Shown here: positions 1,788-39,924 of the stretch, one piece after another | Position numbering within the stretch: the stretch's first letter is position 1 | How the letters are laid out: the number at the start of each line of letters is the position of its first letter | Source of the DNA: an uncultured Alcaligenaceae bacterium | Lineage (GTDB): Bacteria; Pseudomonadota; Gammaproteobacteria; Burkholderiales; JACQAP01 | Length of the DNA stretch: 42,294 nt | NCBI GenBank assembly: GCA_964650365.1 | Contig: CAZYTR010000207.1 | Coordinates: 1-42,294 of the forward strand | Reading direction: 5' to 3' | Made by a program: the position numbers and the translations under genes | Notes under the pieces: model-generated | Databases searched by the model: none | What the model was told of the DNA's origin: nothing | The model's input: only the letters and a program-made list of their open reading frames with translations

Positions 1788-1966
1788 CAACGCAGAGGCG
1801 CAGAGAACGCAGAGGGCGCAGAGAAACCAAGAACTGTGAAAATGATCGATATTCGACAATGCGACACGATGGCGCGAAACGTGCAATCGAGGTCTTGGTT
1901 CCACCTGCCCACGAATTTCGTCCTGATTTCCTCTGCGCCCTCTGCGTTCTCTGCGTCTCGGCGTTG
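1788..1966. repeat. Composite hairpin element E1: purine-rich tandem-unit arm (GCAGAGR units), 100-nt centre, complementary pyrimidine-rich arm
   Basis: The left arm is 1788-1826 (CAACGCAGAGGCGCAGAGAACGCAGAGGGCGCAGAGAAA). The reverse complement of the right arm, 1927-1966, is CAACGCCGAGACGCAGAGAACGCAGAGGGCGCAGAGGAAA. The two arms share a perfect 25-nt run. Confidence 0.9.
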
Positions 1967-3786: not shown

Positions 3787-3853
3787 TGAAGGAGGCACCG
3801 GGATCGGTGCGTCGAATCGTCGGGATTTCCTGATGACTTTTTCGGGAGGCAGG

Positions 3854-5329
3854 ATGTTACGAACCCTGATGATTCTCGGCGCGCTGCTGTTTCCAGTCGC
3901 CATGTGTGGCGCACAGCAGCGGCCTGCGCCCGAGGAGTACCCAACCGCCTGGGAGGTGCCGCCGGGCGATCCCGTCGAACACATGACCGCCGGCTACGCG
4001 AAGGTTCTGTGCTCGGCACTGTTCATCACCGGCCGTGATCTCGCATCGGCCGCCGATGAAGACGGGTTCTTCGTGTCGCCGCGCGCGGAGCGTCGCCTGG
4101 TTACGAAGGTCGTCGTGGACGAGAAGGCGCACGCCGTGCACCTGACATTGCCCAGCGGGGTCACACGCACCGCCCGGCTTTTCCCGGACCAGGGTTGCGT
4201 CACGCTGCCGCGCGGCGCGGATGCGGTGTTTTTTGCTCCTGTCAGAATCGGATCGTCGCTGCCTGGCCCGGCAACGAAACCGTGGCCGATGGGAGACCGG
4301 ATTCCCGATACGCCGCTTGCGCGCGAAATCGATTTCGCGAATGTGGCCGCAGCTGTCGCGGCGGCTTTCGATCCTGCGGAAGCACTCACCGCCGCGTTCG
4401 TGGTGGCGTACAAGGGACGCATCATCGCCGAGCACTACCAGCGTGGACTCGACCACACCACGAGGCTACCGAGCTGGTCGATGGGCAAGAGCATAGCGGC
4501 GACGCTCATGGGCCAGCTCATCCATGAAGGCGTGTATGACCTGTGGTCGCCGGCACCGGTGGACGAATGGCAGCGGCCGGAAGATCCCCGGCGCGCCATC
4601 CGCATTGCCGACCTGCTGCGGATGTCCAGCGGGCTGCGCTTCGTCGCTCCGCAGGACCCGGACTACGATCCCTCGCGGGGCTATCCCGACCACCTCTATA
4701 TCTACACCGGCGCAATCGACTCCGTTCGCTGGGCCGTCACCCGCCCGCCGCAGTGGCCGCCAAATACCGTTGGGCGTTACCGCAATTCCGATCCTCTGGT
4801 GGTGAACTATCTCATCAAGAAAGCAGTCGCCGCTCGCAAACAGGAATATCTTTCCTATCCGCAGCGACATCTGTTCGACCGGCTCGGAATCCGCAACATG
4901 ACCTTGGAGGCCGACCCGTATGGCAATCTCGCGCTTCAGGGCTACGACCTGGGAACCGGACGCGACTGGTTACGCCTGGGACTGCTGTATCTGCAGGACG
5001 GCGTTTGGAACGGCGAACGGTTGCTACCCGAGGGGTGGACGGATTTCGTGCGCACGCCGGCGCCGGCATGGTCGAAGCCGGTGTACGGCGGATTCTTCTG
5101 GCTCAACCGCACCAAACGATGGCCGGTGCCGGAGGACGCCTACTTCATGGCGGGCGCCGGCGGACAGTACGCGATCATCATTCCGACGCACGATCTGGTG
5201 GTCGTGCGGCTTGGCCACTACAAGGGCGCGGAAGCCGGCGAGAAGACATTGTGGCGCGCGCTCGAACTGCTGATGCAAGCGATACCGCAGGTGCGCGATC
5301 CCTGGCAACCGCCGTCCGTGGGCAAATGA
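3854..5329 (+). CDS. Exported serine hydrolase, beta-lactamase class C / PBP-related family
   Basis: The long ORF starts at 3650 but overlaps the msbA 3' end. The ATG at 3854 has GGAGG 3-8 nt upstream and yields a signal peptide, MLRTLMILGALLFPVAMCGA. It has an SxxK motif (SMGK), a YxN motif (YRN) and a late AGG motif. Confidence 0.7.
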   Translation: MLRTLMILGALLFPVAMCGAQQRPAPEEYPTAWEVPPGDPVEHMTAGYAKVLCSALFITGRDLASAADEDGFFVSPRAERRLVTKVVVDEKAHAVHLTLPSGVTRTARLFPDQGCVTLPRGADAVFFAPVRIGSSLPGPATKPWPMGDRIPDTPLAREIDFANVAAAVAAAFDPAEALTAAFVVAYKGRIIAEHYQRGLDHTTRLPSWSMGKSIAATLMGQLIHEGVYDLWSPAPVDEWQRPEDPRRAIRIADLLRMSSGLRFVAPQDPDYDPSRGYPDHLYIYTGAIDSVRWAVTRPPQWPPNTVGRYRNSDPLVVNYLIKKAVAARKQEYLSYPQRHLFDRLGIRNMTLEADPYGNLALQGYDLGTGRDWLRLGLLYLQDGVWNGERLLPEGWTDFVRTPAPAWSKPVYGGFFWLNRTKRWPVPEDAYFMAGAGGQYAIIIPTHDLVVVRLGHYKGAEAGEKTLWRALELLMQAIPQVRDPWQPPSVGK

Positions 5330-5353
5330 CCTCTTTCGACTGACCATGTAGCG

Positions 5354-6036: not shown

Positions 6037-7041
6037 ATGAAGGTCGCAGTCGTGGGCGCTGGAGCGATCGGAGGCTACCTGGGTGTCAGGCTGGCTCAGG
6101 CCGGCGAGGCGGTTACTTTCATCGCGCGCGGCGCCAATCTCGCGGCCATTCGCGCCGGCGGCATGAAGCTGATCCTGGAGGACGGCAGCGAGTTGCATGC
6201 CGAGGGTGCGCGCGCATTCGAGAGGATGAGCGATGCGGGCCCTCAGGACGTCGTACTGTTGACGCTCAAAGCGCATCAGGTCGCGGCGGTCGCTCCCGAT
6301 CTGAACTACCTCTGCCACGGGCAGACCAGCGTCGTCACGATGCAGAACGGGATTCCGTGGTGGTACTTCTACAAGCACGGTGGGCAGTACGAAGGCACGC
6401 CGGTCGTCTGCGCCGACCCCGACGGTGGCATTGCGCGCGGCATTGATGCCGCGCGGGTAATCGGCAGCGTCGTATATCCGGCTGCCAACCTCATCTCGCC
6501 CGGCGTGGTCAAGGTTGTCGAGGGCAACCGCTTCACGCTGGGAGAGCTCGATGGTTCGACCACGCCGCGCATCGAGGCCATCGCGGCGAGCTTCACCAAG
6601 GCCGGTTTCAAAGCGCCTATCACGCAGGACATCCGCAGTGAGATCTGGCTCAAGCTCTGGGGCAACCTGAGCTTCAATCCCGTCAGTGCGCTGACGCACG
6701 CCACCTTGGCAGACATCTGTCGATACCCGCTCACGCGCGACCTGGCGGCGCAGATGATGGCCGAGGCCGAGGCCATCGCCAAGAAACTCGGCGTAACCTT
6801 CCGTGTCAGCATCGAACGCAGGATTGCCGGTGCGGAGAAAGTCGGCGCGCACAAGACTTCGATGCTGCAGGACGTGGAGCAGGGACGGCCGATCGAGATC
6901 GAGGCGCTGGTCGGCTCGGTGGTCGAGCTGGGCCGGTTGACCCAGACGCCGACGCCTCACATCAGCGCCGTCTACGCGTGCGCAAGCCTGTTGGCGAAGA
7001 CGCTCAATGCCCGGCACGAGAAGCTCAGGCTCGAGGGTTAG
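6037..7041 (+). CDS. panE: 2-dehydropantoate 2-reductase (ketopantoate reductase, ApbA/PanE family)
   Basis: The 334-aa product has an N-terminal Rossmann motif, MKVAVVGAGAIGGYLG. It also has the conserved K.SMLQD.E.GR..EI region of the PanE C-terminal domain. Confidence 0.8.
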   Translation: MKVAVVGAGAIGGYLGVRLAQAGEAVTFIARGANLAAIRAGGMKLILEDGSELHAEGARAFERMSDAGPQDVVLLTLKAHQVAAVAPDLNYLCHGQTSVVTMQNGIPWWYFYKHGGQYEGTPVVCADPDGGIARGIDAARVIGSVVYPAANLISPGVVKVVEGNRFTLGELDGSTTPRIEAIAASFTKAGFKAPITQDIRSEIWLKLWGNLSFNPVSALTHATLADICRYPLTRDLAAQMMAEAEAIAKKLGVTFRVSIERRIAGAEKVGAHKTSMLQDVEQGRPIEIEALVGSVVELGRLTQTPTPHISAVYACASLLAKTLNARHEKLRLEG

Positions 7042-8651: not shown

Positions 8652-9182
8652 TCAGGGCGCAGGCATGCGCGAGGAGTGATGCGAGACGATCATCCATCGG
8701 CCGTCGCGCTGGTAAAACACGAAAGTAAAGCGCAGCGGCGTGATGATTTCCTGTCCCTCCTGAACGCTGTGTGAAGTGTAGTAACCCGAGTTGATTGCGG
8801 TATCGCCGTACACCCTGACGTGCTGTTCGCCGATGGCCATGCGCAGATTGGGGCGCCTTGTAGTGGAGTCGGTGAAGTATTCCAGCACCGCATCGGGTGT
8901 GGTGCGGATGGTCGGGGAAATCGTTCCCCAGAACACCGCGTCGTCCGAATAGAGTGCCGCGATCCGCTGCGCGTCCCGGGTGTTGAAGGCCTCGGCCCAG
9001 GCCGTCGTTGCCGCGATGATCTCCTTTTGCACCGCGTCATCATCCGCGAGCGCCACGGAGCCCGTCAGCAAAAGAAACATAGTGGCGAGCAGGCGAAACA
9101 TGGTTGAAGCCGCGACGAATCCTTTGTGCCGTGTGCGGCCTGCTGCGTGCAGGGGAAGAGCGTTATTCCTTGCATTCCGCAT
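8652..9182 (-). CDS. Exported SnoaL-like / NTF2-fold (DUF4440-type) protein
   Basis: The pattern A.AFN.RD...IAALYSDDAVFWGT ... RFTFV..Q.DG.W.IV.HHSS is typical of NTF2-like DUF4440 proteins. The start is ambiguous. ATG 9182 has AAGGAAGG 7 nt upstream, whereas ATG 9101 gives a clean Sec signal, MFRLLATMFLLLTGSVALA. Confidence 0.55.
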   Translation of the reverse strand: MRNARNNALPLHAAGRTRHKGFVAASTMFRLLATMFLLLTGSVALADDDAVQKEIIAATTAWAEAFNTRDAQRIAALYSDDAVFWGTISPTIRTTPDAVLEYFTDSTTRRPNLRMAIGEQHVRVYGDTAINSGYYTSHSVQEGQEIITPLRFTFVFYQRDGRWMIVSHHSSRMPAP

Positions 9183-9240
9183 TCTTATTCCTTCCTTCGT
9201 GTTCCTTTCTTCTACCTTCGTGACCCTTCGTGTTGAAAGC
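9178..9240. repeat. Half copy (right-arm type) of the composite hairpin element, E5-like
   Basis: ATTCTTATTCCTTCCTTCGTGTTCC...CTTCGTGACCCTTCGTGTTGAAAG resembles the E5 right end GGAATTCTTACC..CCTTCCTTCGCGTTCC...CTTTGCGGTGAAGAAG. I saw no complementary purine-rich arm within 150 nt on either side. Confidence 0.6.
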
Positions 9241-9266: not shown

Positions 9267-12023
9267 TCAGTGCGCTTTCTCCCAATTAGGGCCGGCACCG
9301 ACATCCACAACCAGCGGCACATCGAGTCTTGCGACGTTTCCCATCAGCTTCGGCAGTTCCTTTTTTACCGATTCGAGTTCGCCCTCCGGCACTTCGAGCA
9401 CCAGTTCGTCGTGCACCTGCATGATCAGCCGGCTGCCGATCGCAGATGTCGCGATCCAGTCGTGCACGGCGATCATCGCCAGCTTGATTAGGTCGGCCGC
9501 GGTGCCCTGCATCGGCGCGTTGATCGCCGCGCGTTCGGCGCCCTGGCGGCGCGCGCCGTTCCCGCTTCTGATCTCGGGCAGGTAAAGCCGGCGGCCGAAC
9601 ACGGTCTCGACGTAACCGAGCTCGCGCGCCGTCTCGCGGGTGCGCTCCATGTATTCCTTCACGCCCGGGTAGCGCTGGAAGTAGCGCTCCATGTATTGCT
9701 GCGCGGCGCTGCGTTCGATGCCGAGCTGCGAGGCCAGCCCGAACGCGGACATGCCGTAGATCAGGCCGAAGTTGATTACCTTGGCGTAGCGGCGCTGCTC
9801 GCTGGTCACGGGCGCCGACTCGATACCGAATATTTCCGACGCGGTATGGCGATGCACGTCCTCGCCGGCGGCGAAGGCCTTGAGCAGGCTCTTGTCCTGC
9901 GACAGGTGAGCCATGATGCGCAGTTCGATCTGCGAATAATCTGCCGATACGAGTACGGATCCTTGCGGCGCGATGAAGGCTTCACGGATGCGGCGGCCCT
10001 CGGCGGTGCGCACCGGGATGTTCTGCAGGTTCGGATCGTTGCTCGCCAGCCGCCCGGTCACCGCCACCGCCTGCGCGTAATTGGTATGCACACGTCCCGT
10101 CGCCGGATTCACCATCTTCGGCAGCTTGTCGGTGTAGGTGGACTTCAGTTTGGCGAGTCCCCGGTACTCGAGGATCAGCTTCGGCAGCGGATGGTCGAGC
10201 GCGAGTTCCTGCAAGACGTCCTCGTCGGTGGAAGGCTGGCCTCCCGGCGTTTTCTTCTTGACCGGCAGGCCTTTGCGCTCGAACAGGATCTCCTGGAGCT
10301 GCTTGGGCGAATTGAGATTGAAGGGTTGCCCGGCCTCCCGGTGTACCTTGTTCTCCAGTTCGATCATCTTTTCGCCGAGTTCGCGGCTCTGCTGCTCCAG
10401 CAGCGCGGAGTCGAGCAGCACGCCCTGGCGCTCCATCGCAAACAGGACTTCCAGCACCGGCATTTCGATGCCGCGGTAGACGCGATCCAGTTTCTCGTCG
10501 CGCTCGATCTGTGGATACAGCGCCCGGTGCAGTTGCAACGTCACGTCCGCGTCTTCGCCCGAGTACTCGGTGGCGCGCTCCACGCCGACTTGTTCGAAGG
10601 GAATGCGGCTCGCGCCCTTGCCGGTCACTTCGTCGTAGCTGATGGTTGTGATGCCCAGGTGCCGGGCCGCGAGGCTATCCATGTCGTGCGCCTGGTGGCT
10701 TTCCAGTACGTAGGACTGCAACAGCGTGTCGTGCTCGATGCCAGACAGCAATACGCCGTGATTGGCGAACACGTGCTTGTCGTACTTCAGGTTCTGACCG
10801 ACCTTCCGATGCTTCGGACTCTGCATCCAATCCTTCAGCAGTGCGAGCACCGTATCCAGTGCAAGCTGCTCCGGCGCGCCGGCGTAGTTGTGCCCGACCG
10901 GTATATACGCGGCGTGATGGGGCTCGACCGAAAGCGAGATGCCGACCAGTCGTGCGGTCATGGGGTCGAGTCCGGTGGTTTCGGTGTCGATCGAGGCGAG
11001 TTCGGCGGTTTCGATGCGGGAGAGCCAAGTCTTGAGGTCGTGCTCCGTAAGTACGGTCTGGTAGTTGCGTTCAGGTGAGGCGTGAGGGGTGAGGGGTGGG
11101 GGGTGAGGGGTGAGGCGTGAGGGGTGAGGCGATGAAGCCGGAGACTCGGTTTCACCTTGCGCCTCGTGCCCCGTGCCTCGTGCCTGAAGCTCCTTCAACC
11201 AGGTCTTGAATTCGAGGCGATCGAAGAGAACCGTTAGTTTCGCCGTGTCCTGCGGCTGTGGGGTGAGATCCTCGAGCTTCACCGGCAGCTCGACGTCGCA
11301 CTTGATGGTGAGGAGTTTCCTTGCCTGTGGCAGCCAGTCCAGCGACTTGCGCAGGTTCTCGCCGACCACACCGGAGACTTCGTTGGCGTGGGCGACCACC
11401 TGGTCCAGCGTCCCGTACTGCTTCAACCATTTCACTGCCGTCTTTGGCCCGACCTTCTCCACGCCCGGCACGTTGTCCACGCTGTCGCCGACCAGTGTGA
11501 GATAGTCAACCATCTGTTCCGGCCTGACGCCGAACTTCTCTTCGACGCCCTTTTCGTCGAGGTTCTCGTTGGACATGGTGTTCACCAGCCTGACCGTCGG
11601 GTTGACCAGTTGAGTGATGTCCTTGTCGCCGGTGGATATGACGGTGTGCACGCCCCTGGCCTCGGCCTGCTTTGCCAGCGTGCCGATGACGTCGTCGGCT
11701 TCGACCCCCTCGACCATCAGCAGCGGCCAACCCAGCGCGCGCACACTCTGGTGCAGAGGTTCGATCTGGGCGACCAGCTCCTCCGGCATGGGCGGGCGGT
11801 TGGCCTTGTATTCGGTGTACCAGTCGTCGCGGAAGGTCTTTCCTTTTGCGTCGAATACGCAAGCGATATAATCCGCCGCAGTTTCCTTACGCAGCCGGCG
11901 CAGCATGTTGAGCACGCCGTACACGGCGCCGGTCGGTTCGTTGTTCCTGTTGCGCAGGTCGGGAAGCGCGTGGAATGCGCGGTAAAGGTAGGAAGAACCG
12001 TCGACCAGCAAGAGCGTTTTCAT
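9267..12023 (-). CDS. polA: DNA polymerase I (5'-3' nuclease, 3'-5' exonuclease and polymerase domains)
   Basis: The 918-aa product starts with LLLVDGSSYLYRAFHA (5' nuclease). It has DTETT (exo I), the polymerase motif A DYSQIELR, motif B RR.AK.INFG.IYG and motif C QVHDEL. Confidence 0.95.
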   Translation of the reverse strand: MKTLLLVDGSSYLYRAFHALPDLRNRNNEPTGAVYGVLNMLRRLRKETAADYIACVFDAKGKTFRDDWYTEYKANRPPMPEELVAQIEPLHQSVRALGWPLLMVEGVEADDVIGTLAKQAEARGVHTVISTGDKDITQLVNPTVRLVNTMSNENLDEKGVEEKFGVRPEQMVDYLTLVGDSVDNVPGVEKVGPKTAVKWLKQYGTLDQVVAHANEVSGVVGENLRKSLDWLPQARKLLTIKCDVELPVKLEDLTPQPQDTAKLTVLFDRLEFKTWLKELQARGTGHEAQGETESPASSPHPSRLTPHPPPLTPHASPERNYQTVLTEHDLKTWLSRIETAELASIDTETTGLDPMTARLVGISLSVEPHHAAYIPVGHNYAGAPEQLALDTVLALLKDWMQSPKHRKVGQNLKYDKHVFANHGVLLSGIEHDTLLQSYVLESHQAHDMDSLAARHLGITTISYDEVTGKGASRIPFEQVGVERATEYSGEDADVTLQLHRALYPQIERDEKLDRVYRGIEMPVLEVLFAMERQGVLLDSALLEQQSRELGEKMIELENKVHREAGQPFNLNSPKQLQEILFERKGLPVKKKTPGGQPSTDEDVLQELALDHPLPKLILEYRGLAKLKSTYTDKLPKMVNPATGRVHTNYAQAVAVTGRLASNDPNLQNIPVRTAEGRRIREAFIAPQGSVLVSADYSQIELRIMAHLSQDKSLLKAFAAGEDVHRHTASEIFGIESAPVTSEQRRYAKVINFGLIYGMSAFGLASQLGIERSAAQQYMERYFQRYPGVKEYMERTRETARELGYVETVFGRRLYLPEIRSGNGARRQGAERAAINAPMQGTAADLIKLAMIAVHDWIATSAIGSRLIMQVHDELVLEVPEGELESVKKELPKLMGNVARLDVPLVVDVGAGPNWEKAH
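11075..11188. repeat. Tandem-unit arrays of the hairpin-element type inside the polA coding sequence (interdomain linker)
   Basis: Eight contiguous heptamers GTGAGGS/GTGGGGG occupy 11075-11130. After 30 nt come GCCTCGT, GCCCCGT, GCCTCGT and GCCTGAA at 11161-11188. These are the same unit types as the arms of E3 and E4. Confidence 0.85.
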
Positions 12024-19426: not shown

Positions 19427-19587
19427 GGCAGGATCGAGGATCGGGGATTGAGGATTCAAACTAAAGTCCTCGTGAAAACGGAAAATCTGAATGAAGGCTA
19501 CCAATTTGAGCGATCTTGCCGGTGTTCATTCATTGCGCGATCCTTTATGGGGATTTCACTCAATCCTCTATCCTCAGTCCTCAATCC
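19427..19587. repeat. Composite hairpin element E2 (units GGATYGA / TCRATCC)
   Basis: The left arm, 19427-19457, reads GGCAGGA TCGAGGA TCGGGGA TTGAGGA TTC. The right arm, 19560-19587, reads TCAATCC TCTATCC TCAGTCC TCAATCC. The arms are imperfectly complementary and the centre is about 100 nt. Confidence 0.85.
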
Positions 19588-19598
19588 CAATCATCGCG

Positions 19599-26805: not shown

Positions 26806-26854
26806 GTGAGGCGTGAGGCGTGAGGCGTGAGGCGAGAGGCGTGAGGCGAGAGGC
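26806..26854. repeat. Solo tandem heptamer array (GTGAGGC x5 interleaved with GAGAGGC x2) in the gatA-gatB spacer
   Basis: Seven contiguous 7-nt units were counted directly. The unit is the same as in the arms of element E3 and in the polA internal array. I found no complementary arm nearby. Confidence 0.9.
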
Positions 26855-26864
26855 GTTCATTGTT

Positions 26865-29832: not shown

Positions 29833-29978
29833 GGAGGTGAGGCGTTAGGCGTGAGGCGAAGAAAGCCTAGCCCTGCAAGAAATTCCAGTTCTGTTGGGGC
29901 CTGCTACCATCTTTTCTACTGGTAATGCTGATTTTGCCCCTGACGTCCGTCGCCTCACGCCTATCGCCTTACGCCTCC
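29833..29978. repeat. Composite hairpin element E3 (units GTGAGGC / GCCTCAC) filling the mreB-mreC spacer
   Basis: The left arm, 29833-29858, is GGAGGTGAGGCGTTAGGCGTGAGGCG. The reverse complement of the right arm, 29951-29978, is GGAGGCGTAAGGCGATAGGCGTGAGGCG. The centre is 92 nt. Confidence 0.9.
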
Positions 29979-29990
29979 CCCTCATCCCTG

Positions 29991-30893
29991 ATGGAGTACA
30001 CCCCACAGCCGTTTTTCAAACGGGGCCCCAGCCTCCTTGCAAGACTGTCATTCTTCGCGCTGCTCTCCCTGATCCTGTTGTACGCCGACGCGCGCTTCCA
30101 CTACATGGAAGGGATGCGCAAGGCGGTTGGCGTGGTGCTCTATCCTCTGCAGAGAATTGTGGACGTGCCGGGAAAAGTCGCGTCCGGCATCGGCAGCTTC
30201 TTTGTCAGCCAATCCTACCTGCAACGGGAGAACGAGCGCCTCGGGCGCGAGAATTTCCTCAACGCCGGGTTATTGCAGACGCAGCAGGAACTGATCGCCG
30301 AGAATCGTCACCTGCGCGAGCTGCTGGACATGAAGGCTCGCGCCGGACAAACCTCGGTGGCGGCAGAGATCCTCTACTTCGGCCGCGATCCGTTCAGCCG
30401 CAAGGTGATCATCGATAAGGGCTCGTCGCACGATGTCGAGGAAGGCGCGGCCGTAATTGACGATACCGGCCTGATCGGTCAGGTGAGCCGGGCTTTTCCC
30501 TGGACCGCGGAAATCGCCCTGATCTCCGACCGCGAACAGATCGTCCCGGTCCAGGTGGTGAGAAACGGCCTGCGTGCCGCGGTTTTTGGCGCCGGCTATG
30601 ACGGCGCGCTGGACCTGCGCTTCATGCCGGTCAACGTCGACATAGAGAACGGTGACCTGCTGGTGACCTCCGGCATCGACGGCGTCTACCCGGCCGGACT
30701 GCCGGTGGCGATGGTTTCAAACATAGAGCGCAACGCCGCTTACCCTTTTGCGCGCATCACCTGTACTCCCGCCGCCGGCGTCAACCGCCACCGCCAGGTC
30801 CTGGTTCTCTCCAGGCTGGCGCCGCTGCCAGACTACCCTCCCCCGGCCCAGCAAAAGAAGGCCAAGCCGCGCAAGTCGCGGAGGGACGGATGA
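29991..30893 (+). CDS. mreC: Rod shape-determining protein MreC
   Basis: The track ORF starts at 29925, inside the repeat. The ATG at 29991 gives MEYTPQPFFKRGPSLLARL, a TM segment, then a coiled coil (LQRENERL..EN) and the beta-barrel region. Its position is between mreB and mreD. Confidence 0.85.
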   Translation: MEYTPQPFFKRGPSLLARLSFFALLSLILLYADARFHYMEGMRKAVGVVLYPLQRIVDVPGKVASGIGSFFVSQSYLQRENERLGRENFLNAGLLQTQQELIAENRHLRELLDMKARAGQTSVAAEILYFGRDPFSRKVIIDKGSSHDVEEGAAVIDDTGLIGQVSRAFPWTAEIALISDREQIVPVQVVRNGLRAAVFGAGYDGALDLRFMPVNVDIENGDLLVTSGIDGVYPAGLPVAMVSNIERNAAYPFARITCTPAAGVNRHRQVLVLSRLAPLPDYPPPAQQKKAKPRKSRRDG

Positions 30894-33450: not shown

Positions 33451-34537
33451 CCGTCTGTACGCCTACCTGGTCAAGCACCTCGATCGCTATCTGCTGACGC
33501 TGGTGGCCATCTTGCTGGTGATGGGCTTGTTGATCCTGTACAGCGCCGCGGGGGCGAGCCTCGAGCGCGTGGCGGCGCAAATGGCCAACATCGGCGTTGC
33601 GCTGGTGTTGATGTGGATCGCTGCCAACGTGCCCTTGCATTATCTTTCCCGCATTGCCCTGCCGCTGTACGTCCTCGGTCTGGCGCTGTTGATCGCGGTG
33701 GCCGCGTTCGGCGAGATTGTCAACGGTGCGCGACGCTGGCTCGACCTGGGATTCACCCGCATACAGCCTTCTGAGTTGATGAAAATCGCGGTGCCGTTGA
33801 TGCTGGCCTGGTACTTCGATCGCTATGAGGCGGTGCTCAAGATGCGCGACTTCGCTGTCGGGGCGCTGCTGGTGCTGGTGCCGGTGCTGCTGATCGTGCA
33901 GCAGCCCGACCTCGGCACAGCGCTGCTGGTGACCGCGGCCGGGTTCTTCGTGCTGTTTCTCGGCGGGTTGTCGTGGAAAATCCTGGTGGGCCTGACGTTG
34001 GCAGGCGGGGCGAGCCTTCCGTTCCTGTGGCCGATGCTGCACGACTACCAGCGCCAGCGGGTGCTGACGCTGCTCGATCCCTCGCAGGACCCGCTGGGTT
34101 CGGGCTATCACACCATCCAGTCCACCATCGCGCTGGGTTCCGGCGGAGTCTTCGGCAAAGGCTGGCTCAACGGCACCCAGTCGCATCTCGACTTTCTGCC
34201 GGAGCGCACCACCGACTTCATTTTCGCGGTGTACGCGGAAGAGTTCGGCCTCTTCGGCAACCTGGTGCTGATGGTATTGTTCCTGCTGGTCGTCGGCCGC
34301 GGGCTGGTGATCGCAGCCAACGCCCCGACACTGTTCACCCGGCTGCTCGCCGGCGCGATCACGCTGACCTTCTTCACTTACGCCATCGTCAACATGGGGA
34401 TGGTGAGCGGAATCCTGCCGGTGGTCGGCGTTCCGCTGCCGCTGATCAGTTATGGCGGCACCTCGCTGGTGACGATACTATTCAGCGTCGGTTTGCTGAT
34501 GAGCATCCATACGCATCGAAGGCTTGTTCAAACCTAG
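33443..34537 (+). CDS. rodA: Peptidoglycan glycosyltransferase RodA (SEDS family)
   Basis: The 364-aa product has about 10 TM helices. It has QPSELMK, DLG.ALL, DFIF....EE.G..G and PLP..SYGG.S. The GTG start overlaps the mrdA stop by 8 nt. Confidence 0.9.
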   Translation: MINRLYAYLVKHLDRYLLTLVAILLVMGLLILYSAAGASLERVAAQMANIGVALVLMWIAANVPLHYLSRIALPLYVLGLALLIAVAAFGEIVNGARRWLDLGFTRIQPSELMKIAVPLMLAWYFDRYEAVLKMRDFAVGALLVLVPVLLIVQQPDLGTALLVTAAGFFVLFLGGLSWKILVGLTLAGGASLPFLWPMLHDYQRQRVLTLLDPSQDPLGSGYHTIQSTIALGSGGVFGKGWLNGTQSHLDFLPERTTDFIFAVYAEEFGLFGNLVLMVLFLLVVGRGLVIAANAPTLFTRLLAGAITLTFFTYAIVNMGMVSGILPVVGVPLPLISYGGTSLVTILFSVGLLMSIHTHRRLVQT

Positions 34538-34680
34538 GCACGAGGCACGAGGTATGAGGTGCGAGGTCCAAGAAGAAACAGGAGTGCGGCCTTTGACCTT
34601 TCACAAGTGTATGAATCGATCCAATGCCATCAAGACATAGAGTATTTACTCGTACCTCGGCCCTCGTACCTCGAGCCTCC
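34537..34680. repeat. Composite hairpin element E4 (units CACGAGG / CCTCGTA) filling the rodA-rlpA spacer
   Basis: The left arm, 34537-34569, is AGGCACGAGGCACGAGGTATGAGGTGCGAGGTCC. The reverse complement of the right arm, 34647-34680, is GGAGGCTCGAGGTACGAGGGCCGAGGTACGAGTA. About 23 of 31 positions are complementary by hand alignment. The centre is 77 nt. Confidence 0.85.
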
Positions 34681-34718
34681 GCAATAATCATGGCGGCGTT
34701 CGCCGCCATGATTATTGC
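34681..34718. repeat. Near-perfect 38-bp palindrome spanning the rlpA start codon
   Basis: GCAATAATCATGGCGGCG TT CGCCGCCATGATTATTGC has 18 complementary pairs around a central TT, checked base by base. It contains ATG 34690 and ATG 34708. Confidence 0.95.
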
Positions 34719-35517
34719 GGGTTGCGGCAGCGCTCCCGGCCGCACCGGGTCGAAGCCCGGCGGTTACTATCTCGACGACGGACCGGGCGCCAACCCTCCC
34801 GCGGATCTGGATTCGATTGCCGAACCAACTCCGAAAATCGAGCCGGTCAACAAGTACACCAGCCGCCCGTACACCGTGCTCGGCCGCACCTACACACCGC
34901 ACACGCAACTGACTCCGTACAAGGAGCGCGGCGTGGCAAGCTGGTATGGCAAGCGCTACCACGGCCAGAAGACTTCCTCGGGCGAGGTTTACGACATGTA
35001 TGCGCTCAGCGCGGCGCACACGCTGCTGGTGCTGCCGAGTTACGCCCGCGTAACCAATGTCGCCAACGGCAAGTCCGTAGTGGTGCGTGTGAATGACCGC
35101 GGTCCGTTCCATGAGGACCGGCTGATCGATCTTTCCTACGCCGCGGCGCATCGAATCGGCATCATCGGCCAGGGCAGCGCCGTGGTTGAGGTGGAAGCCA
35201 TCATTCCCGGCGGCGGCGAAGCGCCGGTGGTTGCGAGCGCGCCGGCCGCACCCGCGCCGGTAGCGATCCCGGTCAGCAACGAGGCCGGTGGCATCTTCGT
35301 GCAGCTCGGCGCCTTCTCGGTGGAGGACAACGCCGAGGCATTCCTGCGCAGGATGAGCATCGACCTGGCCTGGCTTTCCGGTTCCATGCAACTGTACCGT
35401 GGCGACGGACTTTTCAAGGTTCACGCGGGGCCTTACCCCGATCGTGCAGAGGCCGAACGCGCCGCCGAACGCATCCGGCAGGAACTCGGATTCACACCCT
35501 TTGTGCTGAAACGCTGA
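34690..35517 (+). CDS. rlpA: Septal ring lytic transglycosylase RlpA family lipoprotein with C-terminal SPOR domain
   Basis: The ATG at 34690 gives MAAFAAMIIAGC, with an IAGC lipobox. The DPBB domain shows G.ASWYG..YHG..T.SGE.YDM....AAH..L.LPSY.RV.N..NG.SV.VRVNDRGPF. The C-terminal SPOR domain shows FVQLGAF......A......L. The track start at 34624 lies inside element E4. Confidence 0.85.
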   Translation: MAAFAAMIIAGCGSAPGRTGSKPGGYYLDDGPGANPPADLDSIAEPTPKIEPVNKYTSRPYTVLGRTYTPHTQLTPYKERGVASWYGKRYHGQKTSSGEVYDMYALSAAHTLLVLPSYARVTNVANGKSVVVRVNDRGPFHEDRLIDLSYAAAHRIGIIGQGSAVVEVEAIIPGGGEAPVVASAPAAPAPVAIPVSNEAGGIFVQLGAFSVEDNAEAFLRRMSIDLAWLSGSMQLYRGDGLFKVHAGPYPDRAEAERAAERIRQELGFTPFVLKR

Positions 35518-38122: not shown

Positions 38123-38293
38123 CTTCACCGCAAAGACGCAAAGAGGAACACGCAAAGAAATGCGGAATTGAACAGAAATTCGATCCCGCGATTTGCAAAG
38201 GATACGGGAGCGCACCTGGAATTCTTACCCCAGTTTCCTGCCTTCCTTCGCGTTCCCTTTGCGCCTTCGCGCCTTCGCGCCTTTGCGGTGAAG
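38123..38293. repeat. Composite hairpin element E5 (8-nt units GCAAAGAC / GCGAAGGC) between the cytochrome c5 terminator and apaH
   Basis: The left arm, 38123-38158, is CTTCACCGCAAAGACGCAAAGAGGAACACGCAAAGA. The reverse complement of the right arm, 38241-38293, is CTTCACCGCAAAGGCGCGAAGGCGCGAAGGCGCAAAGGGAACGCGAAGGAAGG. The first 13 nt are identical. The right arm carries two extra units. Confidence 0.9.
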
Positions 38294-38305: not shown

Positions 38306-38334
38306 AACAAAAAAGGCGCAGCCTCTGCTGCGCC
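38306..38334 (-). terminator. Rho-independent terminator of the cytochrome c5 gene
   Basis: The minus strand reads GGCGCAGC AGAG GCTGCGCC TTTTTTGTTTC. That is an 8-bp GC stem, a 4-nt loop and a U-run, about 50 nt downstream of the stop at 38383. Confidence 0.8.
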
Positions 38335-38382
38335 CCATTTTCTGCCTTGCGATTTACCAATCCTCAATCCCCACTCACCGCC

Positions 38383-39011: not shown

Positions 39012-39088
39012 GCGCCCGTAGCTCAGCTGGATAGAGTGTCGGTCTCCGAAGCCGAAGGTCGTGGGTTCGACTCCCGCCGGGCGCGCCA
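39012..39088 (+). tRNA. tRNA-Arg (anticodon CCG)
   Basis: I hand-folded a 77-nt cloverleaf. The acceptor stem is GCGCCCG/CGGGCGC and the D stem is GCTC/GAGT. The anticodon stem TCGGT/GCCGA carries the loop CT-CCG-AA. The T stem GTGGG/CCCGC carries the loop TTCGACT. The discriminator is G and CCA is encoded. Confidence 0.9.
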
Positions 39089-39127
39089 GATTCTTCAGCT
39101 GTTCTTCCTCGTTTCCCCGCTGTCCAA

Positions 39128-39529
39128 TTGAACGAATCGGTCGGCCTCGGCGCTCTGTTCCTGAGCAGCTTTCTTGCGGCTACGCTGCTTCCGGGCGGTT
39201 CCGAACTGGTCTTCGCCGGTGTTCTCGCGAGCGGCGCGGCGAGCGTGTGGCCGGCGTTGGCGGTGGCCACACTGGGCAATACGCTCGGCGGTATGAGTTC
39301 CTACCTCGTCGGGCGGCTGGTGCCGGACAGGAAAATCGGCGCGCAAGCGCTCCACTGGGTGCGGCGCCACGGTACGCCGGTGCTGTTGCTGTCGTGGGTG
39401 CCCGTGATCGGCGATGCACTGTGCGTGGCGGGCGGCTGGCTGCGGCTCAATCCCTGGCGGGCGGCGCTGTTCATTGCGCTGGGCAAGTTCGGGCGTTACT
39501 GCGTGATCGCGGGGTTGGTTACCTGGTGA
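39128..39529 (+). CDS. YqaA/DedA-related (SNARE-associated domain) small membrane protein
   Basis: The 133-aa product has LF.SSFLAATLLPGGSE......L and G...GG...Y..GR, typical of YqaA-like proteins. It has a TTG start and no upstream ATG in frame. Confidence 0.65.
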   Translation: MNESVGLGALFLSSFLAATLLPGGSELVFAGVLASGAASVWPALAVATLGNTLGGMSSYLVGRLVPDRKIGAQALHWVRRHGTPVLLLSWVPVIGDALCVAGGWLRLNPWRAALFIALGKFGRYCVIAGLVTW

Positions 39530-39648
39530 TCGGCCGAGCGCGATTGATTGATTGAAGTCGAATCGTGGCACCGCCTGTTCCTTGATATTGCGCAGTTTTG
39601 TCCACGTTAGCGCTGTTTGGTCCCCCTCGTCCGCTCTCAGACGCGTTA

Positions 39649-39924
39649 TCAGGCCGCCCCACCCGTGAATCGTCGCGAAAGTAAATTGTAGAGCCACCCG
39701 AACACAGCACCGGCAATTGCCCCATCTACCAACGCATAAAGGGTTCCTGTAACGACCGAACCGATAGTCGCACCCGCATGGTAGCCGGGGTAAATGGAGG
39801 CAGCGAGTTCGAGAAATGCGCTACCGTAACCCGGCCAGATCAAGTTTGCCGAGGCTACGGTAAGAACCGCCGCGCCCCAGATAAGTCCAGATGTCAAAAA
39901 CAAAGCGGTGACGTTGAATCGCAT
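39649..39924 (-). CDS. Small hydrophobic membrane protein (91 aa, about 3 TM), family unknown
   Basis: A perfect AAGGAGG lies 6 nt upstream of the ATG. The product is Gly/Ala-rich and hydrophobic throughout. Local GC is visibly lower than in the core genes. Confidence 0.5.
   Translation of the reverse strand: MRFNVTALFLTSGLIWGAAVLTVASANLIWPGYGSAFLELAASIYPGYHAGATIGSVVTGTLYALVDGAIAGAVFGWLYNLLSRRFTGGAA

Follow-up and report, generated by a model that had tools for sequence, protein, structure and literature searches.

Inverted arrays of tandem 7-9 nt units in the intergenic spacers of an uncultured Alcaligenaceae bacterium: candidate foldback, MITE-like elements

The excess of heptamer arrays in bacterial genomes has been noted for decades (the STRR arrays; the heptanucleotide excess cited in PMC4692102) without an accepted origin or role. 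The closest described system is that of Xanthomonas, for which Rehm et al. (2015, PMC4692102) reported tandem GGGAATC heptamers, most often of about four units, and 70-75 convergent inverted pairs per genome. On the coding strand the arrays occur within 50 bp of stop codons, and on the non-coding strand within 50 bp of start codons. They are mostly placed between co-directional genes, and the type of array is preserved between related species while its length varies. A G-quadruplex role was proposed for them, the function being left unresolved (PMC4692102).

The stretch of DNA analysed here, termed the window, comprises 42,294 nucleotides from an uncultured Alcaligenaceae bacterium (assembly GCA_964650365.1, contig CAZYTR010000207.1). 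Five loci of the window, E1 to E5 (Table 1), resemble the Xanthomonas pairs, being tandem arrays in convergent inverted pairs near ORF ends. A preliminary description of this DNA had taken the STRR arrays as the nearest described thing; the Xanthomonas pairs are closer, and the novelty that it claimed is weakened because 70-75 such pairs per genome had already been reported there (PMC4692102). The Xanthomonas arrays are essentially built from one unit, GGGAATC, whereas several unrelated 7-9 nt units occur here in one genome (GCAGAGR, GGATYGA, GTGAGGC, CACGAGG and GCAAAG), most of them without G-tracts and unable to form G-quadruplexes, and none of these is a GGGANTN unit. The Xanthomonas study neither treated the pair and its centre as one element nor looked for mobility, and evidence for both is added here. 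A G-quadruplex role of the arms can be considered by analogy, the placement relative to ORFs being as in Xanthomonas and about four units per arm being the commonest number here too (Tandem Repeats Finder). This role is barely credible, as most units carry no GGG tract (GCAGAGR, GGATCGA, GTGAGGC, CACGAGG, GCAAAG) and pairing with the complementary arm, some 100 nt distant, would be a competing structure.

Intergenic tandem heptamers near gene starts or ends are also described as the STRR of cyanobacteria, the TAACTGA arrays of Beggiatoaceae and the heptanucleotide arrays of Geobacter (PMC4679880, PMC2700814), and some units are similar (GGGGATT and GGGGACT in Nostoc, GGGGATT GAGGATT in E2). 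Unlike E1-E5, these arrays are mostly unpaired and direct, with few inverted pairs reported in Nostoc. The 5'-UTR of H. influenzae hmw carries transcribed heptamer repeats that pair with a complementary purine-rich arm; RNase III cleaves the paired structure, and folding affects the change in repeat number (PMC12721329). It differs from E1-E5 in being a single locus of adhesin phase variation, with the pyrimidine-rich repeat arm first and without dispersal.

The prokaryotic MITEs (Correia/nemis, ERIC, Chunjie; PMC10969869) have in common with the present elements small size, non-coding sequence, terminal inverted repeats, an intergenic or intra-operon position, co-transcription (predicted for the present elements), hairpin formation and duplications in young copies, the latter on the metagenome contigs L068 and L036 discussed below. 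Arms made of tandem short units are a feature absent from the 2024 review of these elements (PMC10969869). The present elements further differ in the lack of a centre common to the members of a family and of a known parent IS, and duplications are absent from the window copies. RNase III cuts the hairpins of Correia elements (PMC10969869). Correia/nemis elements possess a 26-bp conserved terminal inverted repeat, a TA duplication and an IHF site, whereas the arm sequences found here are unrelated to that repeat and TA flanks are absent. REP/BIME/REPIN elements consist of a 20-40 nt imperfect palindromic unit with a conserved GTAG/CGTC tag, along with a RAYT gene in the genome, whereas the arms found here are tandem direct units without the tag, and the window contains no Y1 transposase. 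Inspection of the sequences and of the window ORFs revealed none of the features that define REP/BIME, ERIC, Correia or RPE, and the preliminary description had likewise not recognised the elements as any of these. The nearest architectural analogue is the Foldback (FB) transposon of Drosophila, which has long inverted arms of tandem short repeats, variable arm length and a heterogeneous central loop; FB is eukaryotic and of kilobase scale, and the likeness is one of architecture only.

Direct reading of E1-E5 revealed a common layout. A purine array of three to five units, each of 7-9 nt, is followed by an AT-richer unique centre of 79-101 nt and then by the reverse-complement pyrimidine array. 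The elements are about 145-200 bp long and non-coding, with no conserved ORF, and the GC content of the centres is 41-50% compared to about 62% for the window. The coordinates given earlier were right within a few bases, and the shared architecture is real according to the ranking of inverted repeats, Tandem Repeats Finder and folding. The four best inverted repeats of the whole window include E1 (39 nt, 92%), E3 (23 nt, 91%) and E5 (21 nt, 90%), so that arms of 21-39 nt are 90-92% complementary. The 25-nt CGCAGAGAACGCAGAGGGCGCAGAG of E1 is mirrored exactly at 1931-1955, as had been reported. Tandem Repeats Finder detected period 7-9 arrays in both arms of E1-E5 and at three related fragments (9178-9240, 11075-11188 and 26806-26854), all of which exist. 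The second of them is not intergenic but lies within a coding region.

Table 1. Coordinates of the composite elements and partial arrays in the window
Feature	Position	Strand	Description
E1 5' arm	1788..1826		about four 9-nt units, (A/G)(A/G)CGCAGAG
E1 centre	1827..1927		unique, 50% GC
E1 3' arm	1928..1966		reverse complement of 5' arm, 39 nt, 92%
E1 neighbours			upstream aldehyde dehydrogenase gene, downstream ABC exporter gene (Pfam)
E2 5' arm	19427..19457		units AGGATCG / GGGATTG; begins 3 nt past leuS stop codon
E2 centre	19458..19558		in-frame ATG at 19491 opens lptE reading frame
E2 3' arm	19559..19592		units CTCAATC / CTCAGTC; probably translated as N-terminal part of LptE signal peptide
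E2 neighbours			upstream leuS, downstream lptE (Pfam)
E3 5' arm	29833..29859		units GTGAGGC; begins 4 nt past mreB stop codon
E3 centre	29860..29949		no alignment to L021 despite 86-92% identical flanks
E3 3' arm	29950..29978		units CGCCTCA; ends 12 nt short of mreC ATG at 29991
E3 neighbours			upstream mreB, downstream mreC (Pfam)
E4 5' arm	34536..34569		units CACGAGG; overlaps rodA stop codon
E4 centre	34570..34648		
E4 3' arm	34649..34680		units CCTCGTA; ends 9 nt short of rlpA ATG at 34690
E4 neighbours			upstream rodA, downstream rlpA (Pfam)
E5 first arm	38123..38158		CTTCACCGCAAAG, ACGCAAAG and further units; termini match widespread CGCAAAG family
E5 centre	38159..38240		
E5 second arm	38241..38293		(CCTTCGCG)n with CTTTGCGGTGAAG at its end
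E5 neighbours		-	upstream cytochrome c gene with terminator 38313-38336, downstream metallophosphoesterase gene start (Pfam)
Half element	9192..9234	-	CACGAAGG-type purine array upstream of SnoaL-like gene
polA linker arrays	11074..11185	-	ACGAGGC and CCTCACC units, 31-nt spacer; inside polA 9267-12023
Half element	26806..26856	-	seven GTGAGGC units, pyrimidine array on gene strand, immediately 5' of gatB ATG

The five copies do not belong to one sequence family, as had been supposed, but to at least four unit families: CGCARAG (E1, E5), AGGAYTG-like (E2), GTGAGGC (E3 and two partial arrays) and CACGAGG (E4). No second copy of any E1-E5 centre was found in the sequences compared, and only the arm units recur within the 42-kb window. 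The short strings noted earlier as shared by the centres are at the level of chance, 39 hexamers being present in two or more centres against 32±5.5 expected; ATCGAT, listed for E1, E4 and E5, is absent from the E5 centre. Composites were detected by seed clustering; a strict tandem-array detector and two blastn-based detectors missed known copies. Seed clustering found 15 composites in the window and 20 related loci, compared to 0-2 per Markov shuffle.

No conserved small ORFs were found in the centres. Among the Rfam covariance models applied to the window, only that of tRNA-Arg reached the gathering score, and nothing matched the elements at E <= 1. The 28 window ORFs scanned contained no transposase or integrase Pfam domain, in agreement with the earlier statement. 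A literature search on the arm sequences gave only unrelated primer matches, and an exact-protein look-up gave no match for the aldehyde dehydrogenase and one short contig for MreB.

Inverted arms around an AT-richer segment of about 100 bp are also seen in invertons, and E5 is placed after a terminator and ahead of the next gene, a position that calls for a promoter. The arms might accordingly be iteron-like protein-binding arrays, or recombination sites of an invertible switch that flips a promoter in the centre. Such a role is very improbable. The unit sequence varies among the loci of a single genome, which does not fit one sequence-specific binding protein; sigma-70-like promoters were not found in E1, E3 or E5; the window has no recombinase gene; and the centres that can be compared together with their flanks in related contigs are collinear, not inverted. 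Some narrower candidates were also rejected. The likeness of the E1 ends to integron attC sites is absent from the other copies, CsrA-site arrays (AAGGATG units) are not general, and no promoter or terminator was found in the centres.

The RNA fold of each E1-E5 spacer is a single long stem closing a large multibranched loop, which bears out the hairpin character assigned to the elements earlier. The z-scores against dinucleotide shuffles were -8.3 for E1, -3.2 for E2, -5.3 for E3, -2.6 for E4 and -7.7 for E5. The stems are long enough for RNase III, and the H. influenzae hairpin offers an experimental precedent for the cutting of heptamer repeats by this enzyme (PMC12721329). E1-E4 lie between co-directional genes, in conserved operons (leuS-lptE, mreB-mreC, rodA-rlpA), where they fill the spacer from stop to start codon, and the elements persist among relatives in which LptE shows 61-96% identity from one protein to another. 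They could be host-selected, cis-acting RNA hairpins of operon mRNAs (intercistronic stabilisers, RNase III sites or means of translational coupling) that set the expression ratio of the flanking genes, any mobility being secondary. This is considered rather unlikely. Sense and antisense strands fold equally well, the sense strand being more stable in 15 and the antisense strand in 18 of 33 spacers (Wilcoxon p = 0.66). Selection of the stems in operon mRNA should lead to an accumulation of G·U pairs on the sense strand. No such bias was found: 20 E5-type elements flanked by co-directional genes had 46 G·U against 40 A·C mismatches on that strand (p = 0.59). In other hosts, moreover, the genes downstream of the elements retain their own Shine-Dalgarno sequence at variable distances.

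The match between the arms is specific to each element. When the 5' arm is compared with the reverse-complemented 3' arm, the mean identity is 0.68 for arms of one element, as against 0.59 for arms of different elements (p = 8e-11). As the complementarity is element-specific and yet shows no sense-strand bias, a strand-symmetric process accounts for it better than selection acting on a single RNA does. One known process of this kind is the correction of quasi-palindromes by template switching.

The same spacers were compared in 20 loci from uncultured Burkholderiales/Betaproteobacteria MAGs, obtained by an LptE search with one genome per species. About 14 of 18 relatives show this architecture in the leuS-lptE spacer, with different but related units (AGGACTG, GGACTCG, AAGGATG, GTGCTGC, GGGACGA), and in about 9 of 11 loci the mreB-mreC spacer holds composites or 5' arms of the GTGAGGG/GTGAGGC type. 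The gatA-gatB spacer is variable. It may be empty (6-14 nt), hold a pyrimidine-only array, or hold a full composite of another family, as in L002, L007 and L020; such variation, half elements and empty spacers included, also speaks against selected RNA hairpins. In the relatives compared, the unit family of a given spacer is conserved while the copy number differs and the centres are unrelated. The gatA-gatB array has seven units in the window and four in L001, and L004 has extra AAGGATG units relative to L001. The CACGAAGG-type family, present in the window as a half element, forms full composites in L025 and L050.

The interiors change much faster than the neighbouring genes. The leuS-lptE elements of the window and L001 are unalignable, although the four-fold sites of LptE are 90% identical, and interiors are unalignable where these sites are 80-90% identical. 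Between the window and L021, MreB is identical and the flanking DNA is 86-92% identical, yet the intervening 128 nt and 72 nt cannot be aligned. Some arms are highly stable; a 30-nt 5' arm is identical in L013 and L017, although their four-fold sites are saturated (52% identical). A second small hairpin repeat (about CTTATGGCCGAAGGCCGGTATTCCGC, or GGGCAGAGCCCGGTATCCAGCGAAGTCGGGC) was seen inserted in composite arms or centres of L009, L010, L011, L013 and L014, and a different small repeat, GGGTACTCCACGCTAWCGCGAGGGTAT, is nested in L050 and L106.

The distribution outside this group was analysed with the termini of E5, which were searched in metagenome contigs as CACCGCAAAG-N(120-150)-CTTTGCGGTG. 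At least 120 contigs matched. Nearly all matches listed have tandem (N)CGCAAAG units in both arms and A-rich and T-rich inner borders as in E5, with centres mostly unrelated among them and contig GC ranging from 36 to 72%. The flanking genes of the matches listed are co-directional in 49 cases, convergent in 15 and divergent in 13; the convergent and divergent settings count further against hairpins selected in operon mRNA. Other unit families present on E5-type contigs (AAGGATG, GGGACGA, CACGAGG, CACGAAGG, ACGGAGGAC, CACAGAGG, GTGACGA, AGGGACT) are found in the window or its relatives too, and several contigs hold two or three copies. Among viral contigs, the E5 pattern had one match and the GTGAGGS pattern none, and this near-absence indicates that phages are not the vehicle. 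In L002 (at position 1), L048, L080, L098 and others, the contig begins or ends inside an element, which suggests that these repeats break metagenome assemblies.

Whole elements are shared between unrelated surroundings. Five contig pairs (L036/L086, L026/L105, L083/L043, L038/L051 and L025/L059) have elements that are 74-93% identical over their whole length in non-homologous flanks. Homology of centres between unrelated contigs was found for the AAGGATG and ACGGAGGAC types, and the centre of an AAGGATG-type element of L111 matches that of the L001 element at 77.6% along 98 nt. A clear case is L068, a contig with a hyp operon, which has three copies about 93% identical (186-379, 995-1188 and 6626-6819), bounded by CCTGAAAA...TTTTCAGG. 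Each copy has its own 5-bp direct repeat outside the terminal repeat (TTCAT, TTTAT and ATGAA), and these 5-mers are target-site duplications; one of the insertions sits exactly at the hypE start codon. A 5-bp AT-rich duplication together with a terminal repeat starting with CC resembles the IS1380 family, which may offer a lead. The element of L036 (7187-7405) has a 16-nt outer terminal inverted repeat with an 8-bp GAATGGAA duplication outside it.

No duplication was recognisable by inspection at E1-E5, and an automated search found none directly abutting the CACC...GGTG core in 109 of 113 metagenome copies listed. The subfamilies of L036 and L068 share the inner CACCGCAAAG-array module but differ in the outer inverted repeats around it and in the length of the duplication (8 bp and 5 bp, respectively). 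As the clear duplications are found beyond additional outer repeats that are specific to a subfamily, and are not of one length, the module might be cargo or a nested insert and not the transposon end. The elements agree with MITEs in being shorter than 500 bp and non-coding and in having terminal inverted repeats, and the E5/CGCAAAG, AAGGATG and ACGGAGGAC families recur as similar copies at unrelated sites in the metagenome contigs. A related autonomous IS with the same ends was not found in the window, in L068 or in the contigs examined, where no arm pairs lie 1-3 kb apart around an ORF, and no transposase was found in the window, in L068 or next to any copy examined. The preliminary description had held that a match to a known MITE family with its mobilising enzyme would remove the novelty. 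This came about in part, in that E5-type elements are dispersed repeats with target-site duplications elsewhere; no mobilising enzyme is known for them.

The polarity of the arms was also considered. In strictly filtered composites with non-CGCAAAG units, the order is purine to pyrimidine in 19, opposite in none and compositionally neutral in 4, and the Xanthomonas pairs are likewise 'always' convergent (PMC4692102). A purine arm that comes first in an inverted repeat comes first on both strands, so that polarity carries no information on gene direction; a strand-specific function of the purine arm on the coding strand was dropped for this reason. Because independent local origins should yield both polarities, the occurrence of only one suggests that the unit families share their descent or that the mechanism is polar. 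This bears on a purely local origin, in which an array would arise by slippage at a gene end, an inverted copy would form by a template-switch error and concerted evolution would follow, without any movement. Each spacer does keep its unit family while copy number and variants drift, half elements exist, and the window copies have no target-site duplications. Such an origin is nevertheless decidedly unlikely. Besides the single polarity, whole elements including their centres are common to unrelated flanks, some copies have target-site duplications, and a small set of unit families turns up again and again in contigs that differ widely in GC.

On balance, it is somewhat probable that E1-E5 are non-coding foldback, MITE-like elements of a broad superfamily, with inverted ends of tandem 7-9 nt purine-rich units and a dispensable, fast-changing centre. 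This reading builds on the hairpin potential, the arm match within elements, the orthologous persistence with copy-number change and interior turnover, the unrelated flanks and the duplications of some copies. The long retention of one unit family per spacer across deep divergence counts against it, as this also fits local evolution or functional selection. The superfamily would include many unit types (CGCAAAG, GTGAGGC, AGGAYTG, CACGAGG, AAGGATG, GGGACGA, ACGGAGGAC and others) and would colonise intergenic and intercistronic spacers of many environmental bacteria. New copies would arise by transposition, catalysed in trans by a putative enzyme. Resident arms would change through replication slippage and would be kept complementary by intra-element template switching (quasi-palindrome correction), not by selection on one RNA strand. 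Elements inside operons would be co-transcribed and would fold into stems of 25-40 bp, which are plausible RNase III substrates and, by analogy with Correia/nemis and H. influenzae hmw, could uncouple or stabilise the flanking cistrons; any effect on operon mRNA, such as RNase III processing, is inferred from these analogues.

A wider proposal can be put forward only tentatively and with considerable doubt. The elements may represent an unnamed superfamily of foldback transposable elements in many phyla, with fast-evolving 7-9 nt tandem ends of fixed purine-to-pyrimidine polarity. They would be recognised or regenerated by structure or polarity and not by a fixed terminal sequence, for example by a hairpin-recognising transposase or by addition or correction of end repeats. 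The heptamer arrays of Xanthomonas, cyanobacteria, Geobacter and Beggiatoaceae would then be members or remnants. An array, centre and mirrored array that behave as one unit turn a compositional oddity into a testable mobile-element hypothesis. The elements lie among housekeeping genes, inside essential operons (leuS-lptE, mreBCD-rodA-rlpA, gatCAB) and reach into coding regions (the polA linker and, probably, the lptE signal peptide), and likely consequences are broken assemblies, confused start-codon calls and altered processing of operon mRNA.

The polA arrays are read in frame and form the linker that joins the 5'-nuclease and Klenow domains of PolA (...SPHPSRLTPHPPPLTPHASP...); the PolA linker of relatives differs, with PLTPHASP kept. 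E2, which had been placed wholly between genes, is probably intergenic only in part. The lptE frame is open upstream across the 3' arm and the greater part of the centre (19491-19598 in the window, and the spacers of L001-L020), and of the three frames it is the longest one in 14 of 16 orthologues. As the annotated start leaves only 10 residues before the lipobox cysteine, the true start of LptE is probably within the element. Downstream genes of the window without an obvious Shine-Dalgarno sequence prompted the idea of a Shine-Dalgarno, anti-Shine-Dalgarno or ribosome-shunt role. It was rejected as not general, since normal ribosome-binding sites are present in other hosts and mreC and gatB have an in-frame stop just upstream of the ATG. 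Nearly all mreC orthologues, whether or not an element is present, have a stop codon that directly adjoins or overlaps the ATG (TGATG, TAGATG, TAGgATG, TGAATG; 29989-29993 in the window).

Directly after E4, a perfect 20-nt inverted repeat with a 2-nt gap (CCGCAATAATCATGGCGGCG / CGCCGCCATGATTATTGCGG, 34679-34720) spans the rlpA start and signal-peptide codons. Elsewhere in the window, ORFs without a Pfam match occupy 3787-5353 and 39095-39697, and the GC content falls to 57-60% past the tRNA-Arg(CCG) at 39012-39088.
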